A program made the translations under genes and the position numbers. Below are positions 3,196-59,727 of a stretch of 61,640 bases of DNA, in pieces (within the stretch, counting starts at the first letter, position 1; every line of letters starts with the position of its first letter). The DNA comes from a virus, in IMG/VR virus record IMGVR_UViG_3300001688_000037; one strand, given 5' to 3'. The notes beneath the pieces are model-generated. The model did no database searches, was not told the origin of the DNA, and saw nothing but the letters and a program-made list of their open reading frames with translations.

Positions 3196-3516
3196 TTATT
3201 TCAATTTCAAATTGTGTACCTGTTCGATTAACTGGAGTACCTTATCATATCCCACCATAGCTCCTACCCATACCGCTACAGCCATAAGTACCATACAAAG
3301 GATATTAGGCGGAGTAAATGCAATCCCTAAAAAGATGTACATAAGAGCGGTACCGCCAATCCCTACGATAATGGAAATAATGAGTACTACTACATTAGAG
3401 GAGTACTTTACTCTCATATTATCCAGAAATTTCTTTACCGCCTCTGTAAAGAGGGATACTGCTACTGCCAAGATAACCAAAAGTGCCATAAAAAGTGTAA
3501 GTGTCATTTCCTGCAC
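3196..3516 (-). CDS. Holin-like membrane protein
   Basis: 106 aa, three hydrophobic helices, charged C-terminus, immediately upstream of the endolysin. Confidence 0.55.
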   Translation of the reverse strand: MQEMTLTLFMALLVILAVAVSLFTEAVKKFLDNMRVKYSSNVVVLIISIIVGIGGTALMYIFLGIAFTPPNILCMVLMAVAVWVGAMVGYDKVLQLIEQVHNLKLK

Positions 3517-4338: not shown

Positions 4339-4463
4339 TACTCTGCCAGCTCTGGTACTTCCAGATCAATAAGGATTTCCTTTACCTGCTCCTTAAGGAT
4401 CTCTGGCACATCTGCAAAGGTTTTCTTACCCTTAACAATGAGGGTAGCGTAGATAACTGCCAT
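4338..4463 (-). CDS. Small protein (41 aa), paralog of 4520..4627
   Basis: Not in the ORF track (<60 aa). ATG 4463 follows AAAGGAGGTACCGACT. Reads MAVIYATLIVKGKKTFADVPEILKEQVKEILIDLEVPELAE. Confidence 0.55.
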   Translation of the reverse strand: MAVIYATLIVKGKKTFADVPEILKEQVKEILIDLEVPELAE

Positions 4464-4646: not shown

Positions 4647-4925
4647 TTACAGCATCATCTCATATACATCCACTAAGGCTAACTGGAGGCTAGTTGTCTG
4701 CTCCTCCAGAGAGGCGTTTTGAGCTGTTAAGATCTGGATATACTCATCCTTTGTATAGATGATCTGCTCCGCAATTTCCCAGCCATCAAAGCCAGTACCC
4801 ATCTCATCATCCTTAGCCTCCTCATGGATCTCCTTGATACCATTGTTAATGATAACATGGTAATCATCCTGCTCCATCGGTAATACTTCTGGAGCTGTAC
4901 TCCTTACGCTTGTGAATTTCTGCAT
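4647..4925 (-). CDS. Hypothetical acidic protein downstream of the RT (tail-fibre-associated, XkdW-position)
   Basis: 92 aa. AAGGAGG lies 9 nt upstream of ATG 4925. Overlaps the RT 3' end by 62 nt. Confidence 0.55.
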   Translation of the reverse strand: MQKFTSVRSTAPEVLPMEQDDYHVIINNGIKEIHEEAKDDEMGTGFDGWEIAEQIIYTKDEYIQILTAQNASLEEQTTSLQLALVDVYEMML

Positions 4926-6123
4926 TGCCTTTTACCTCCTTTAAGTAGTATTCGTGCATATATTCCACATTAGGCTCCACATATTTATGATATAAGCGGT
5001 AGCTATCACAATGTTGTAGCCAGCCTTTGTAGCTATTAAATGAGCACCACTCACTATAAGTAGGGCTCACATTATTTTCTCTCTTTTTAGATATTGCTAA
5101 CATTTTCCTCTTGAAACTCTTACAAGTGGATTTTCTAAGGAGTGTGTACTCTCCAAAGAAACGATAGCCTACAAAATCAATCCCCCTAACCTTTGAGGGA
5201 AATACCTGCCAGTTATGCTTAATAACCTGTTTAAGGTTTTCCGCTAAAAACTCATCAATTTCTCTCTTTAGCTGGTGTAGTTCCTCTTTCGATTTACCAA
5301 AGATCACTATATCATCCATGTATCTGTAGTAATACTTAACTCCCTTAACCTCTTTGAGCCAATGATCCAAAATGGATAGATTAAGATTACCGCTATACTG
5401 GGATACATAGTTTCCTATAGGTATTCCTACACCATCTACAAACTCTTTTCCATTATCATCTATGATAATATTTACTAGCACTCCTAACCGCTGGAGTATC
5501 TCTAAGTTTTCCTCCGTAGCTGGACAAGTGCTAATACTATCTATGATCTCATCCAGTAACCATATAAGCTCTGGATCCTTAAAGATTTCCCTGTACCTCT
5601 GTTTGAGTACCTCATGCACTATAGTAGGGTAATACTTCCGTACATCTAATTTCAAACAGTAGGCGGTACCCTCTGGATCCGATACTAAGATACTAGGTAT
5701 CCACTTTTGGTAGACTACCTTACCATCCTTTTTAATCTTCTTTGTGTATCCCCTTAAATCATTTACGATAGGCTGGATACCCTTATTAGGTATGGCACTA
5801 TATGTATCCTTAGTTAAATTCTTTAAGAGATAGGGCTCTATAACCTGTAGGATAGCCCATTGACATATACGGTCTGGATAATAAGGGAGCTTGTAGATTT
5901 CCCTCTCTTTCTTTCCCTCCGTTTTGGTAAATACCTCATAATCGGAGGTTTTATATGTATGATCTATAAGGCTTGTTTGCAATCTCCGTAAGTGCTTATC
6001 TAGGCTACTTTCAACCTGCTTTACTTCCGCATACCACCCTTTTCCTCTCTTTGCGTTCTTGTGGGCTTTTCTTAGGTTATCCATATCACAGATTTTAGAG
6101 TAAAGATCTCCTGTACCTTTCAT
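4864..6123 (-). CDS. DGR-type reverse transcriptase
   Basis: YRYMDDIVIFG catalytic box and IGNYVSQYSGN (IGxxxSQ, DGR-typical motif 4). Start set to ATG 6123 (MKGTGDLYSKICDMDNLRKAHKNAKRGK) behind AAGGTGG. Cognate TR/VR pair immediately upstream. Confidence 0.9.
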   Translation of the reverse strand: MKGTGDLYSKICDMDNLRKAHKNAKRGKGWYAEVKQVESSLDKHLRRLQTSLIDHTYKTSDYEVFTKTEGKKEREIYKLPYYPDRICQWAILQVIEPYLLKNLTKDTYSAIPNKGIQPIVNDLRGYTKKIKKDGKVVYQKWIPSILVSDPEGTAYCLKLDVRKYYPTIVHEVLKQRYREIFKDPELIWLLDEIIDSISTCPATEENLEILQRLGVLVNIIIDDNGKEFVDGVGIPIGNYVSQYSGNLNLSILDHWLKEVKGVKYYYRYMDDIVIFGKSKEELHQLKREIDEFLAENLKQVIKHNWQVFPSKVRGIDFVGYRFFGEYTLLRKSTCKSFKRKMLAISKKRENNVSPTYSEWCSFNSYKGWLQHCDSYRLYHKYVEPNVEYMHEYYLKEVKGNAEIHKRKEYSSRSITDGAG

Positions 6124-6370
6124 ATCTGTATACCCACCTTTGCTATTTTTGTATGTGCATAAAGAGGAGCCAGCTATCCGCCATAGCACCTCTGTACTTC
6201 CTTGCAAGCATCAGTAAAAACGGTTTACAGATAAACTCTGCACATAGGCACCTCTTTATGATTTTTTACCAGCCCTCACAAGAGAGGCTTTTTATTTTCT
6301 GGCAAGAGCCACGGTAGCTGTTACTCACTTAGGGTTTTATTTCTAAGTGTCATGGTATAACACTATTTAT

Positions 6371-6496
6371 GCACATATAGTAAGTGACTGCTGATATTCC
6401 GATTACGATTAGAGGAGGTATTATTCACATTAAGATACCATGCTCCACAATTAGAGCCATTATTCCATTTACCACCCAATTTAGTAATTAAGAAAC
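6371..6496 (-). repeat. DGR template repeat (TR)
   Basis: 126 nt, non-coding, aligns without gaps to 6612-6737. 38 adenines on the minus strand. In the VR frame it is rich in AAT/AAA codons. Confidence 0.9.
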
Positions 6497-6591
6497 TCTT
6501 TACAGCTACCGACAAAAGGGTATTAAAAAAGAGCCTTTACAGCCCTCTTTCAATACCCCATTGATTTTATTATTTTATTGTTACGATGGTT

Positions 6592-8388
6592 TTAGGCTAC
6601 CTGTGTTTGTGGCACATACAGCAAGCGACCGCCGACAGCCCGACCACGACTAGAGGAGGCATCACCCACACCAAGAAACCACGCCCCACAAGCAGAGCCA
6701 CCATCCCACCTACCACCCAACGTAGCAATCAAGAAACCGTTGTAGGTGTAATTCTGCCAGTAGTAATCTCCTACTGGTAAAGCATCGGATCCTGCACTTG
6801 CTGTAGGTAAAAATACCTCTGGGTAATCCTCATTGTAGCCTACTGCACTCCAGTAACCGTTACTGTGGCTAAGCTGTGTACCGTAGTTATCGTAGCCCTC
6901 TGTAGTGTTATCTACCATAGCCTCTCCTGCTCTGTGGAGGTAAGCATCATTTAAGCCCTTAGCTAAGATGTTAATACCATCCAACCAAGTCCAGATATTA
7001 CCCCAGAGGTTTTCCTCTCCTCTGTAGGATACAGAGCACTTACCATCTACACCAGCGTTAGGATCAATACCAGATCCATTACCTAAGCTAGAGGTAGCAC
7101 CTGTATTTACTGCCATGTTAGTAGCACCATCATCTACAAAATCAGCTACACCTCTACCGATCTTTCTCTGGCAATCCATAGAGCCATACTCTACCATGAT
7201 AAGCCATTGAGTAACCGCTAAGGCGTAGATATTATGGCTCTGCCATCCTGCACCTCTGTTATTGCACAAAGCTCTAACATTTGCTCTGGTTAAGTTCTGG
7301 GTTAATCCGCTGGCTGGCTTAGCACCTGCGATACTAGAGAGCATATCTGTAGCAAAATCCGCTACCTGCTCATCTGCCTTAAGGTATGCTGTAGCGGAGC
7401 TATCATAAATAGCACCCTCATAAGCGGAAAGATAGATCTTATCCTGCAAGATACCATTTTCATCCTTAAACGCCTGCGGAGCCTTAAAGCCTACCTTAGG
7501 AGTAGGAGAGATATAATATCTAGCCTTTGTGATTTCCTTACCCTTACCAGAGGTAGCATTTTTCATCTTAACAGGTACGGTTTTCACATAAAAGATAGGC
7601 TGTTCTACCATTACCTGTACCTGTGTACCGATAGGGTATTCTTTTTCTCCAATAGTGATAGCCTGTGTTAGAGCTCCTGTTTCCGTGTACCCTGCATCTC
7701 CACGATAAGCAACTACTACACCCTCATTAGTGATATTACATCTCTTTCTAGCCCACGGAGAGAGGCTATCAAAATCTGCACCAGCGGTAAGATTTTCTGC
7801 TCCTGCCAATCTGGTAAATTTACGGTTAGCATAATCAACCTCTACACCGTAAACATCATCCTCCTCATAGCCTACAAAAGATCTTACATCGTCAATCTGG
7901 CTCTGTAAGTCTACGATCTGGGCTACTGTTGCTGTAGCTGTAGGATCTACCTCTACTGTTACACTGGAGGCATTAGATACCGCTGTTATCAGATCCACCA
8001 TAAGGCTAGATACACCGATACCATTAAACGGAGGCATCCAATCCGCTGTAGCGGTACTCTCATCCGCTACGGAAATACTATAGAGGATTTCTCCATCCTG
8101 CGGATCCGTAGCATATAAGCCAATATTTCTAACATAGTAGCCAGCTTTCAGCGTTTCGTTATTGAAACTAGCACTTACCTTTACATTACTGTTATTCTGC
8201 TTAATAACAGAGGCTACCGCTGTAGATTGCTTAATAGTACCGATCCCTGTTTTAGAGGCAAGATCCCCACTAAGAGTATTTTCCGATACTGCAATTTTTG
8301 TAAAATTCAGTTTGCAAGTACCAGCTACTACCTTAGCTAAAAGAGCCTGCCCTTTAGTTGTGATTACTGCACTCTTAAAAGCACCCAT
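6592..8388 (-). CDS. Tail fibre / receptor-binding protein, DGR target (C-terminal C-type-lectin/FGE-like fold inferred)
   Basis: 598 aa after the baseplate genes. C-terminal WGNIWTWLDG and GGRWDGGSACGAWFLGV features. The last ~50 codons contain the VR. Confidence 0.8.
   Translation of the reverse strand: MGAFKSAVITTKGQALLAKVVAGTCKLNFTKIAVSENTLSGDLASKTGIGTIKQSTAVASVIKQNNSNVKVSASFNNETLKAGYYVRNIGLYATDPQDGEILYSISVADESTATADWMPPFNGIGVSSLMVDLITAVSNASSVTVEVDPTATATVAQIVDLQSQIDDVRSFVGYEEDDVYGVEVDYANRKFTRLAGAENLTAGADFDSLSPWARKRCNITNEGVVVAYRGDAGYTETGALTQAITIGEKEYPIGTQVQVMVEQPIFYVKTVPVKMKNATSGKGKEITKARYYISPTPKVGFKAPQAFKDENGILQDKIYLSAYEGAIYDSSATAYLKADEQVADFATDMLSSIAGAKPASGLTQNLTRANVRALCNNRGAGWQSHNIYALAVTQWLIMVEYGSMDCQRKIGRGVADFVDDGATNMAVNTGATSSLGNGSGIDPNAGVDGKCSVSYRGEENLWGNIWTWLDGINILAKGLNDAYLHRAGEAMVDNTTEGYDNYGTQLSHSNGYWSAVGYNEDYPEVFLPTASAGSDALPVGDYYWQNYTYNGFLIATLGGRWDGGSACGAWFLGVGDASSSRGRAVGGRLLYVPQTQVA
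6612..6737 (-). repeat. DGR variable repeat (VR) inside the tail-fibre 3' end
   Basis: Differs from the TR at 31 positions, all at TR adenines (27 A>G, 3 A>C, 1 A>T on the coding strand). No mismatch at C, G or T. Confidence 0.9.
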
Positions 8389-21853: not shown

Positions 21854-21940
21854 AGTAGGATAAAATATGTATTATTTATAGAAACACTTTGTAAAAATGT
21901 TTCATTTTCTAAGTAAATCTATTTCAGTACAAAAAAAAAA

Positions 21941-34483: not shown

Positions 34484-34503
34484 GAAAATTTATAAAAAAA
34501 AAT

Positions 34504-47096: not shown

Positions 47097-47105
47097 TAAG
47101 AAAAA

Positions 47106-47130
47106 GAGGAGCCTTTTACAGCCCCTCCTC
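47106..47130 (-). terminator. Hairpin/terminator after the methyltransferase gene
   Basis: GAGGAG(GG)GC-TGTAAAAG-GCTCCTC followed by TTTTTC on the minus strand (imperfect stem). Confidence 0.5.
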
Positions 47131-47132
47131 CG

Positions 47133-47724
47133 TTATACTTCATTTCCCCAGCAATCCCAGCCATCTACCGCCTGCCTTGCAAAGAGTTCTATTTTATGTA
47201 GCCCCCCCCCCTGCTAAGAGTTTTACAATACGATCTCTAGTTTCTGCTGGCTTTTTACTATGCTCCTCAATATGGCTAAGGATAACGCTATGTACTCCTG
47301 CATCTGCTCTCTTAGGCTTTCCTTTAATACCTAAGAGGCACAGCTCCGCATTAGCTCTAGTCCAGTTACCCATACCCCAGAAAAGGCTATCCGCTTTCTT
47401 ATTCTGCTTAACCCATGTAAAAGCACAGGTTTTATAATTAAATCCCCACGCCCTCATAAGATCAAACGCCTCCTCTAACATCGGCATAGTAACCCACATA
47501 AAGAGCACACAATCCTCATCCGCAAGATCCGCTACTGGGAGCTTTTTAATATCCTGTATGCTCATTACATCATACTTACAACCAGCTCCTCTATCTCCTG
47601 CCAGAGCTTTATCTCTATAGCTCCACGGAGGATCTGCATAGATTATCTGGTATTTTTGCTCCGTATTAAAAATATCTACTTTCAAAGTAATACCCTCCTT
47701 TTGTGTTTGATCGATCCTAATCAC
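47133..47724 (-). CDS. MT-A70-family N6-adenine DNA methyltransferase, interrupted by a frameshift at a G10 tract (as read: 47194..47724, 176 aa)
   Basis: DPPW motif (IIYADPPWSY). The as-read frame ends ..KLLAGGGAT*. With one G fewer it reads AGGGLHKIELFARQAVDGWDCWGNEV*, ending at 47133. Confidence 0.75.
47202..47211 (-). other. Homopolymer tract (C10 on plus, G10 on the coding strand) inside the methyltransferase 3' region
   Basis: gta g cccccccccc tgc read directly. The longest G/C homopolymer I saw in the window. Confidence 0.9.
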
Positions 47725-47746
47725 AAAAGGAGGGTATTGTTAGATA

Positions 47747-47950
47747 CTAATTTTGAGGAGGTAACTCCTCTAAGATCTTAAAATGATGCACCTCTCGCTT
47801 ATTACCCTTTTTGATCTGTACTCTCCGTGTGGTACCTACCTCTAAAGGAGTAGTACACTCATCCAGAGTACGCTCTTTCTTATCCTCTACATCATATACT
47901 CTATACCTCACTCTGGAGAGCCTCCTTTCTAGCCTTATCCATAGCCTCAC
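47747..47950 (-). CDS. Hypothetical protein (start uncertain)
   Basis: 67 aa. 50-nt overlap with the upstream gene. No clear RBS at the annotated ATG. Confidence 0.35.
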   Translation of the reverse strand: MRLWIRLERRLSRVRYRVYDVEDKKERTLDECTTPLEVGTTRRVQIKKGNKREVHHFKILEELPPQN

Positions 47951-48590
47951 GCTCCTTATACTCCTCCAGCGTGATCTCTATAAAGGAAGTATCTCCCTCC
48001 TTAAAGTATCTGTTTACCTCTACTCTTTCTCCGTTAGCTCTATTGATATAGAGGATAGCCATTGTATCATAATCTCCATTTTTAGGATCTGTGAGGAGCT
48101 CACTACATACAATCTCATCCGCTCTATTGCTAGGCATATAAGGCATGGTAAGAGGGAATAAATCACTATAAATCTTGCCTACAAAGCCATTATGCCAGCT
48201 TACAGTAGGGTTATCCTCACTAACACAGTAACATCTATTTATATCTTTATAGGTTACTGTGCCATCTTCTGCCACATCCTTAAACAAACTGCTCATTCTC
48301 TTACATTGATAATGTTTACCGTTTGCATCGTCTGTATGTGTATAATTCCATACATCCTCTGTATCCTCAATAGGAGTAAGAGGCTTACCATCTATCAATC
48401 TGTTAAGGATCTGCTTAGTAAAACAAATACTAGCCCCACTATGCCCTTGATTACAAAGTACCTTAAATGCCTCTAAAGCTCCCTCATAACAAGCTACACC
48501 ATAATCCCAATCCTCACTCTCTGGATTATCTCCTCTTTCTCTCTTAGAGGCTATCTCTACCTCTCTTTTAGCCCATTCCTGCATACTCAT
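47901..48590 (-). CDS. Hypothetical protein
   Basis: 229-aa ORF. 4-nt overlap with the upstream gene. Confidence 0.5.
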   Translation of the reverse strand: MSMQEWAKREVEIASKRERGDNPESEDWDYGVACYEGALEAFKVLCNQGHSGASICFTKQILNRLIDGKPLTPIEDTEDVWNYTHTDDANGKHYQCKRMSSLFKDVAEDGTVTYKDINRCYCVSEDNPTVSWHNGFVGKIYSDLFPLTMPYMPSNRADEIVCSELLTDPKNGDYDTMAILYINRANGERVEVNRYFKEGDTSFIEITLEEYKEREAMDKARKEALQSEV

Positions 48591-58169: not shown

Positions 58170-58934
58170 TTAAAACACAATATCCTTACCATTCTCATCC
58201 TTTGCGGTTTTACCATCCCATTTTTTACTAACCGCTGTAGGCTTAGGAGATCCTCCGTACTTTTTGAGAGGGTAAAGATCTTTCCAGCCCTTACTAATAC
58301 TTTGATCCACTATAGCCATAGCTAAGGCTGGATCCTCTCCTGCATTATCTCTAAGAGTACTAGCAAATCTCTCTACAGTAGTTACCTTAGGAGTATAGTT
58401 TCTGCCTTTACAGCTATGGAGAAATTTCTCTAAAGCCTCTCTCACATACTTATTTTCCTCTCTACTAAGGATCTCTGCATAAGATTTCTTTTTCCCTGTT
58501 GAGGGAGCTTGCTCCTCTTTACCGTTAGGTAAAGAATTTTCTATGTTATCTTTACTATCTTTATTGAGTAAAATTTCTTTACTCGTAGCGGATAAAATTT
58601 TTTTACTCGCTTGATCTCCATCGGATAAAATTTCTTTACTCGCTCTAATAGCTGTATAACTGTTGTAGATAAGAGCTCCTTTAGTAGTACTACTCTTAGT
58701 GAGGAGCCCCTGCTGTACCAGATTATCTAAAGTGTTAATAACTGTAGGGCGTGATACTCCGCCTAGCCAATCACAAAGATAATCCACACTCCCTGTAAAT
58801 GCTGTGTTAGTAGTCTGGGAAAAGCCATAGATAATAGCGTAAAGCATAAGAGCGTTACCCTTAAGTCCCAGCTCTGTTATCATCCAGCCCTGTACTACAA
58901 AGTAGTTTTCTGGTTTTACTTTTATCTTTTCCAT
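58170..58934 (-). CDS. Replisome organiser / replication initiator-like wHTH protein (putative)
   Basis: 254 aa. N-terminal wHTH-like LKGNALMLYAIIYGFSQ...SVDYLCDWLGGVSRPTVINTLDNLVQQGLL. Upstream of the DnaC/DnaB genes. Internal iteron-like repeats. Confidence 0.45.
   Translation of the reverse strand: MEKIKVKPENYFVVQGWMITELGLKGNALMLYAIIYGFSQTTNTAFTGSVDYLCDWLGGVSRPTVINTLDNLVQQGLLTKSSTTKGALIYNSYTAIRASKEILSDGDQASKKILSATSKEILLNKDSKDNIENSLPNGKEEQAPSTGKKKSYAEILSREENKYVREALEKFLHSCKGRNYTPKVTTVERFASTLRDNAGEDPALAMAIVDQSISKGWKDLYPLKKYGGSPKPTAVSKKWDGKTAKDENGKDIVF
58569..58642. repeat. Three iteron-like 17-nt direct repeats (58569-58585, 58593-58609, 58626-58642)
   Basis: taaaatttctttactcg / taaaatttttttactcg / taaaatttctttactcg. 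Start-to-start spacing is 24 and 33 nt. They encode SKEIL/SKKIL/SKEIL. Confidence 0.8.
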
Positions 58935-58991
58935 AGATCATACCTCCAGTTAAGGAGAGAGGAGATACCAGCTCTCCCCCCCCTGTAAGTA

Positions 58992-59207
58992 TTACTCCAT
59001 TTCGGAGATAACCTTTTCAATATTATCACAAACCTCATCAAAAGCCTGTTTAATGATAGCCTCTCTCTGCTTAGGATCTGTGCCTCCATCAATCATAAGG
59101 CTCATTCTAACAGTAGGCTTACACCAGATACCGCTCTTATTCTGTACACTCATTCCCAGCTCCACATCAATACCAGCTACTCTAGCTGTAAACTCATTTT
59201 TTGCCAT
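58992..59207 (-). CDS. Hypothetical protein
   Basis: 71 aa. RBS GGAGGTAGTAACA. Confidence 0.5.
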   Translation of the reverse strand: MAKNEFTARVAGIDVELGMSVQNKSGIWCKPTVRMSLMIDGGTDPKQREAIIKQAFDEVCDNIEKVISEME

Positions 59208-59697: not shown

Positions 59698-59727
59698 TAC
59701 TCCTCAAAATTTAGGTAAAAAAAAATA

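Follow-up and report, generated by a model that had tools for sequence, protein, structure and literature searches.

The window, by which we mean the whole stretch of 61,640 nucleotides of IMG/VR virus record IMGVR_UViG_3300001688_000037, carries on its minus strand a gene for an MT-A70 N6-adenine methyltransferase (47133..47685) that is interrupted by a slippage-prone homopolymer of ten guanines (G10, read as C10 on the plus strand, 47202..47211). The original prediction had placed this run in a methyltransferase open reading frame (ORF) with a DPPW motif (IIYADPPWSY), and both are seen in the sequence. In the G10 frame the ORF closes with ...KLLAGGGAT* at a premature TAA stop (47194..47196, minus strand, read from 47196 to 47194). 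With G9, or with G12, reading goes on to ...AGGGLHKIELFARQAVDGWDCWGNEV* and ends at a stop at 47135-47133. The early stop and the continuation of the G9 frame to 47133, both of which had been predicted, were reproduced by translation. The C-terminal coding segment beyond the tract (LHKIELFARQAVDGWDCWGNEV*, 47133..47201, minus strand) is out of frame yet intact. Translation for each tract length showed that G6, G9 and G12 are in frame, and that G7, G10 and G13 on the one hand and G8, G11 and G14 on the other yield two distinct truncated tails, the tail of G8 and G11 being ...GGGYIK*. The repeat thus lies within the ORF and its length toggles the frame between a full-length and a truncated product, as in a contingency locus.

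The TTG at 47685 is taken as the start codon because all homologues begin with MKVDIF and an AAGGAGG ribosome-binding site lies 5' of it. Counted from this codon, the product has 163 aa as read and 183 aa when repaired, and the homologues have 181-184 aa. The short form had been described as 176 aa long, counted from a GTG at 47724; its incompleteness stands, as shown below, but its length is corrected to 163 aa by the start at TTG 47685. The G10 tract is the sole homopolymer of at least eight bases inside any gene of the window, and it is made of GGG, the rarest glycine codon in the genome (11%). The other runs of at least eight bases lie between listed ORFs, save a T8 where two adjacent ORFs meet. 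Among them are plus-strand A10, A10, A9 and A9 runs at 2128-2137, 21931-21940, 34494-34502 and 59717-59725, all between minus-strand genes, which are probably the T-runs of terminators or spacers in promoter regions.

Comparison with the Pfam MT-A70 profile (PF05063, cut-off 23.9) showed a match to profile positions 1-143 of 172 for the protein as read (84 bits) and to positions 1-172 of 172 for the repaired protein (111 bits). Because the match of the short form ends at position 143, the form of 163 or 176 aa is incomplete. The match to the PHROG family phrog_359 'DNA methyltransferase' (1.5e-89) behaves in the same way for the as-read and the repaired proteins. The original prediction, which had proposed such a profile alignment, held that the gene as read lacks a conserved segment and that a 1-nt slip restores it. 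Both statements are borne out, the corrected protein spanning the full profile and the short form failing to do so. The catalytic motif IV, (D/N)PP(W/Y), is represented by the DPPW of residues 18-21, in which D18, P19 and W21 are invariant in 33 homologues. The DPPW precedes the S-adenosylmethionine (SAM)-binding motif, which is the motif order of the beta class. The methyltransferase is the only ORF of the window with the motif IV of amino-methyltransferases (C5-cytosine methyltransferases lie outside this search).

The repaired protein aligns over its whole length with the catalytic domain of METTL3. In this alignment the glycine run corresponds to a short loop following the helix ...MIERLS, and the hidden segment LHKIELFARQAVDGWDCWGNEV comprises the last beta-strands and the SAM-binding residues. 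The lost tail ELFAR...GNE, present only in the G9-repaired frame and absent from the G10 product, aligns to RKIELFGRPHN...GNQ of METTL3. Phe534, Arg536, His538, Asn549 and Gln550 of METTL3 contact SAM, and the activity of the N549A/Q550A mutant is at background level (PMC5023411). Residues I165-R170 (IELFAR), G175-C178 and G180/E182 of the phage protein are invariant in the 33 homologues. The ending ELFAR...GW..WGNE had been put forward as the conserved C terminus of MT-A70 enzymes, and both the METTL3 alignment and this invariance agree with it. In an AlphaFold (AF2) model of no more than moderate confidence (mean pLDDT 67), the loop that joins the helix of residues 142-157 to the strand of residues 164-167 contains the tract. 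The loss of these elements argues strongly that the truncated 163-aa product should be inactive, and G10 is very likely an OFF allele.

The tract recurs at an unchanged codon position across a broad clade of gut Clostridia phages (75-95% protein identity), and its length varies among these relatives. Lengths were counted in the consensus sequences of public assemblies or contigs. In hundreds of independent assemblies the tract reads G7-G11, also where the flanking DNA is identical, and phage genomes from many people that match in all else differ in it. In an IMG/VR cluster of genomes 97-99% identical over 6.5 kb, 21 aligned loci showed G8, G9 and G10 in 3, 14 and 4 cases, scattered over sub-lineages, and a metagenome scan added one G8, five G9 and two G10 to this cluster. 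In a second lineage (lineage 2), the products predicted for the different tract lengths, all with one and the same 160-aa backbone, were looked up exactly and found in 133 contigs, of which 5 have G7, 20 have G8, 65 have G9, 35 have G10 and 8 have G11; G4-6 and G12-15 were not found by this look-up. Counted by index blocks or contigs read, the numbers for G7-G11 are 9, 35, 115, 67 and 12. The lineage 2 spectrum is bell-shaped and centred on the in-frame G9, with about half of the assemblies out of frame.

Comparison of flanking DNA with the tract removed (3.1 kb upstream and 1.5 kb downstream, 4.6 kb in all) revealed four lengths on flanks with zero differences, namely G7 (L189), G8 (L178), G9 (L286) and G10 (L168), each from a different sample. 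A neighbour-joining tree of 38 genomes, a sample stratified by tract length, requires at least 19 tract-length changes compared with 22.4 for shuffled labels, and ON and OFF alleles are intermingled on it. The closest relatives of the window are OFF as well: L161 (95% identity) has G8, L017 has G10, and the proteins P0023, P0032 and P0035 are truncated. G10 also occurs in L017, L018, L024-26, L033, L213 and L214. Among protein clusters at 90% identity, about 24 of the 44 with the tract are truncated by a frameshift, compared with about 1 of the 76 family clusters that have no tract. Broken genes among the homologues are thus tied to the presence of the tract, and a general artefact of homopolymer errors is rejected. 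The comparison of tract length in related phages, which the original prediction had put forward as a check, therefore gave G7-G11 and four lengths on identical flanks. Of the two explanations that had been offered, a phase-variable switch or a sequencing error, comparison with relatives speaks for a truly hypervariable tract and against a one-off error, and there is little doubt that the tract is length-variable in nature.

Analysis of the hidden frame indicated that the gene has been maintained. All 44 of the 44 sampled OFF alleles can be repaired through tract length alone, with the hidden C-terminal frame intact. The ratio of nonsynonymous to synonymous polymorphism (pN/pS) is 0.12-0.21 upstream of the tract, at a synonymous divergence of up to 0.61, and is similarly low in the 21 codons downstream of it. 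Because the alleles are repairable and pN/pS is low, the gene must have been kept functional throughout, also in lineages that are now OFF. The intact hidden frames and the low pN/pS rule out a decaying pseudogene. Reversibility, in the sense that the gene stays functional over time, is supported indirectly by the repairable alleles, the purifying selection and the intermingling of ON and OFF alleles.

The homopolymer itself also appears to be retained. Only 12 of 47 four-fold sites are invariant among seven lineage representatives, and all seven keep nine uninterrupted Gs. In L018 and L020 the run is shifted one base out of the codon register (gcG GGG GGG GGc), and its length is kept. More distant family members read ...CGDIPRIELF... 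and have no run, which indicates that the tract arose in a variable linker. The divergence at four-fold sites, the register shift, the use of the rare GGG codon and the distant members without a run together favour retention of the homopolymer as such.

A second tract of this kind lies in another gene of the same phage group. The related phages L018/L195, L020/L196 and L197 also have a gene for a D12-class adenine methyltransferase of the Dam-like kind (PF02086). It lies 1.1 kb upstream of the MT-A70 gene, is unrelated to it and carries its own polyG tract near codon 25, close to the 5' end. The tract is G10 in L018 (2308-2317, the same as L195 2571-2580), G8 in L020 (2310-2317, the same as L196 2571-2578) and G9 in a shifted context in L197 (2570-2578). 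It is out of frame in 3 of 3 contigs, each of another length or context. Public data contain the predicted in-frame Dam-like protein (P0143, 100% identical) as well as calls truncated at the N terminus, and distant Dam homologues have no run. The same device in two methyltransferase families of one phage group amounts to an independent replicate, which is hard to ascribe to chance. In the window, the place of the Dam-like gene is taken by an unrelated gene (47901-48590, phrog_24386).

Taken together, the comparisons suggest that the G run is probably a slippage-driven contingency locus that toggles the methylation of phage DNA, and that the window shows it in the OFF state. Slipped-strand mispairing in replication, by the phage PolA or by the host replisome in lysogens, would add or remove Gs. 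G9, and rarely G6 or G12, would be ON and give an enzyme of 183-184 aa. G7, G8, G10 and G11 would be OFF, with a stop in or just past the glycine loop before the last beta-strands and with loss of the SAM-binding residues. Low-level transcriptional or ribosomal slippage may leave the OFF state leaky. Reversible and frequent change would produce phage or lysogen populations with methylating and non-methylating lineages. The enzyme would work in trans in the infected cell, so that the methylation phenotype of a new variant would be one infection cycle behind its genotype. Heterogeneity would thus be expected between infected cells or lysogens, and not within one burst, which refines the plausible idea of the original prediction that progeny would be a mixture of methylated and unmethylated phages. 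The pay-off may be bet-hedging between restriction that adenine methylation blocks and defences, of the Type IV or DpnI-like kind, that attack methylated DNA; alternatively, switching may avoid a cost of methylation. The methylome of the lysogen itself could also be affected. We infer the inactivity of the truncated protein, slippage as the mechanism, selection for the switch and the selective agents.

A broader arrangement can be suggested tentatively. The unrelated MT-A70 and Dam-like enzymes, each gated by a polyG tract, might constitute a multi-locus 'methylation phasotype'; of its four conceivable ON/OFF combinations, three occur among the three contigs with both genes. Together with a tail-fibre diversity-generating retroelement (DGR), a single phage would vary its epigenetic identity as well as its receptor binding. 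In a lysogen the switches could act as a phage-borne phasevarion and render the host methylome heterogeneous. Under this arrangement, the OFF state of about half of the natural populations would mean that methylation is often and strongly selected against, for instance by gut defences that depend on methyl-adenine.

Of the other explanations for the variable tract, that of a mutational hotspot of no adaptive value survives best, although it seems unlikely. Here the run would simply be unstable, and the gene would be one that the phage can do without in many hosts or as a prophage; OFF alleles would drift to fixation and in time be purged or revert, with no selection for the capacity to switch. 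In favour of this, long homopolymers vary generally in these phages, non-coding ones included. The terminator T-run of the L001 cluster (alignment columns ~4391-4393, equivalent to ~47102-47108 of the window) is T7, T8, T9 and T10 in 3, 6, 11 and 1 loci, and an A10 of lineage 2 (L162 8271-8280) is A8, A9 and A10 in 1, 4 and 4 loci; the latter run sits near the 3' end of an ORF of 54-64 aa and may alter its length. Six-base runs are invariant among near-identical genomes. Since other long homopolymers vary too, length instability alone is no proof of selection for switching. The OFF state of about half of the consensus genomes is compatible with weak selection, and in a temperate phage with a serine integrase, lysogen bottlenecks could fix neutral OFF alleles. 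Nor is G10 improbable from composition, as 14 of 100 shuffles that preserve the dinucleotides of the window contain one; the run stands out from chance through its conservation and behaviour in relatives and not through composition.

Like the variable T- and A-runs and the shuffles, several further points weigh against a selected switch. In L081, from a Lachnospiraceae metagenome-assembled genome (MAG) of the rabbit (83% identity, ~3460-3480), the tract is short, interrupted and in frame (CTG GGT GGG GGG GTT), which indicates that interruption is possible and tolerated; in L081 the gene may have become fixed in the ON state naturally. The seven lineages could also owe the 3' part of the gene to recombination, in which case the argument from conservation would rest on less independent cases. 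The stratification of the 38-genome sample means that it gives no population rate, and the last 14 residues are poorly modelled by AF2. However, if the run were a liability that selection does not maintain, synonymous interruption should have removed it from a gene under purifying selection (pN/pS 0.12-0.21). Instead the run is pure in 7 of 7 lineages at near-saturated synonymous divergence, is built of the rarest glycine codon and keeps its length despite a shift in register. The same device recurs in an unrelated second methyltransferase of related phages, and the length spectrum is centred on the in-frame length. On this evidence, selection for switching itself appears likely, short of proof.

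Error in sequencing or assembly of this particular window, whose true genome would then have G9 and an intact gene, is very improbable. Runs of 9-10 identical bases invite errors, both on several sequencing platforms and during library PCR, and the exact protein of the window, as read or repaired, is absent from a collection of 15 billion proteins searched by exact look-up, so that there is no second copy for comparison. However, the 61.6-kb genome is otherwise densely filled with intact ORFs and no other gene is broken at a homopolymer, which argues against an assembly generally prone to such errors. G10 is moreover a common natural state, as in the 35 of 133 lineage 2 contigs and at other loci, and the closest relatives are OFF too, with other lengths. 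G7 and G11, each two bases off the in-frame length, occur in contigs of ~57x and ~16x coverage (from the record names); in assemblies so well covered, consensus error is no explanation.

Long homopolymers favour slippage of RNA polymerase and runs of rare codons favour frameshifting, and some leaky full-length product from OFF alleles is plausible, but programmed recoding, in which G10 would be the working form and the full-length enzyme would arise by transcriptional slippage or by +1 frameshifting on the rare GGG codons, is hardly credible: a fixed signal predicts one conserved out-of-frame length, whereas five lengths in all three frames were found, with the mode at the in-frame G9 in each lineage. 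A fixed programmed frameshift is rejected on these grounds, and the sequence after the tract showed neither a stimulatory structure nor a slippery heptamer.

Repeat-switched methyltransferases in bacteria and contingency loci in phages are already known; what is added here is an orphan enzyme of the MT-A70 family from a temperate phage of gut Clostridia, with natural-population evidence of unusual richness and a sister tract in a Dam-like gene. For genes of phages T2 and T4, agt included, such loci were demonstrated in 2025 (Gomez, Barrick & Waters, bioRxiv 10.1101/2025.10.21.683753). In T2 agt, frameshifts of one base in either direction at an A9 tract switch off DNA modification and revert ~1000-fold faster than a point mutant, and the locus hedges between opposing Type IV defences acting on modified and on unmodified DNA, TgvAB versus McrA/BC (bioRxiv 10.1101/2025.10.21.683753). 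Like agt, the present tract is a homopolymer within a phage gene for a DNA-modification enzyme. It differs in that the gene encodes an MT-A70 adenine methyltransferase and not a glucosyltransferase, the tract is G9/G10, and the phage is a temperate one of gut Clostridia rather than a virulent coliphage. The kind of evidence differs too, being natural population polymorphism here and laboratory rates for T2.

Fletchervirus phages of Campylobacter have polyG tracts of G7-G11 in coding genes that give ON/OFF subpopulations (Sorensen et al. 2021, Cell Rep 35:109214, at second hand). These resemble the present tract in length and in lying in phage coding genes. However, those tracts are in receptor-binding protein genes and concern host recognition rather than DNA modification, and their host is described as having no mismatch repair, whereas the host here is probably a member of the Clostridia. 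A polyG tract in a methylase gene of Bordetella phage BPP-1 was noted and, by the account that cites it, never studied (Liu et al. 2004, via bioRxiv 10.1101/2025.10.21.683753). As far as that account goes, BPP-1 is alike in being temperate and in having both such a tract and a tail-fibre DGR, and differs in an unrelated host and phage type.

Phasevarions rest on repeat-switched Type III mod and Type I methyltransferases of Haemophilus, Neisseria, Helicobacter and Moraxella (PMC13076061). They share with the present locus a simple-sequence repeat in a methyltransferase ORF, and their ON/OFF changes arise by slipped-strand mispairing. In contrast, those loci are chromosomal, linked to restriction-modification and re-programme host expression, whereas the enzyme here is a phage-borne orphan that might affect host expression. 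Among phage-carried orphan N6-adenine methyltransferases are M.EcoGII and other prophage-borne enzymes of the beta-class or MT-A70 type (PMC5778455, PMC7544214) and PamA of an S. aureus prophage (PMC13076061). The present enzyme resembles these in being a phage-carried orphan with the motif order of the beta class, the DPPW lying ahead of the SAM-binding motif. Unlike the present gene, neither M.EcoGII, nor the other prophage-borne enzymes, nor PamA has been reported to be switched by a repeat.

If the tract is a true switch, it would be a natural, population-scale phage contingency locus over DNA modification in a widespread group of temperate phages of the human gut, for which hundreds of public assemblies already record the tract states. 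It would support the recent claim, made for laboratory coliphages, of phage bet-hedging through simple-sequence repeats, and would carry that claim over to orphan methyltransferases and the gut virome. Annotation pipelines will label such genes as pseudogenes or split ORFs, and the ON/OFF states would confound the methylation-based linking of phages to hosts in metagenomes. The tract would also provide a ready read-level marker of in vivo selection by restriction and by anti-methylation defences.

The genome in the window is a complete-looking one of a temperate siphovirus type, with all genes on the minus strand. It encodes a serine-recombinase integrase, an endolysin, a tape measure protein, a portal protein and a large terminase. 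The replication module comprises DnaB, a primase, a single-stranded DNA-binding protein (SSB) and DNA polymerase A; after it come the genes of the methyltransferase, of a Cas4-like exonuclease and of a RecA-like protein. The large serine-recombinase integrase (226-1962) lies at one end of the window, and relatives are embedded in contigs of 120-250 kb (for example 179, 245 and 248 kb). The integrase and the embedding of relatives in such contigs indicate a temperate phage that is found integrated. The relatives come from human-gut assemblies and from MAGs of Lachnospiraceae or other Clostridia, and the host is probably a member of the Clostridia. Among GenBank phages, megablast found no near-identical record, and tblastn found only relatives of at most 63% protein identity, which have no tract.

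A DGR occupies 4864-8388 on the minus strand. It consists of a reverse transcriptase (4864-6207, phrog_1423), a template repeat (6371-6496) and a variable repeat (6612-6737) in a tail protein gene (6592-8388). The 126-nt variable repeat lies at the 3' end of the tail protein gene and differs from the intergenic template only at template adenines. The window phage thus has, besides the polyG tract, a second and separate device for diversification.

The methyltransferase gene is flanked by putative control elements. Upstream, a perfect hairpin of 16-17 bp (47690..47737, minus strand; minimum free energy (MFE) -29.3 kcal/mol, z = -5.7) has the Shine-Dalgarno (SD) sequence of the methyltransferase in its 3' arm. 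Its loop, ATTAGGATCGATCAAA, is conserved and contains GATC, and a U-rich stretch with the start codon comes after the hairpin. The hairpin is kept in six lineages with compensatory changes, as seen more clearly in single-sequence folds than with RNAalifold, which was hampered by a mis-registered MAFFT alignment. It probably controls expression, either by sequestering the SD sequence as a translational repressor or as a terminator or attenuator, and the GATC in its loop might link it to methylation. An intrinsic terminator (47102..47131, minus strand) lies directly after the end of the full-length gene. The sequence just upstream of the gene showed no sigma-70-like promoter, and a self-contained 'moron' cassette is thus not supported. 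The only other G/C run of at least eight bases in the window is a G8 on the minus strand (58976-58983). It lies between the ORF at 58992-59207 and a 254-aa replication-initiator-like gene (58170-58934), ~42 nt upstream of the ATG of the latter, and makes up the 5' arm of a hairpin predicted there (GGGGGGGGAGAG/CUCCUCUCUCC; -28 kcal/mol, z = -2.8).

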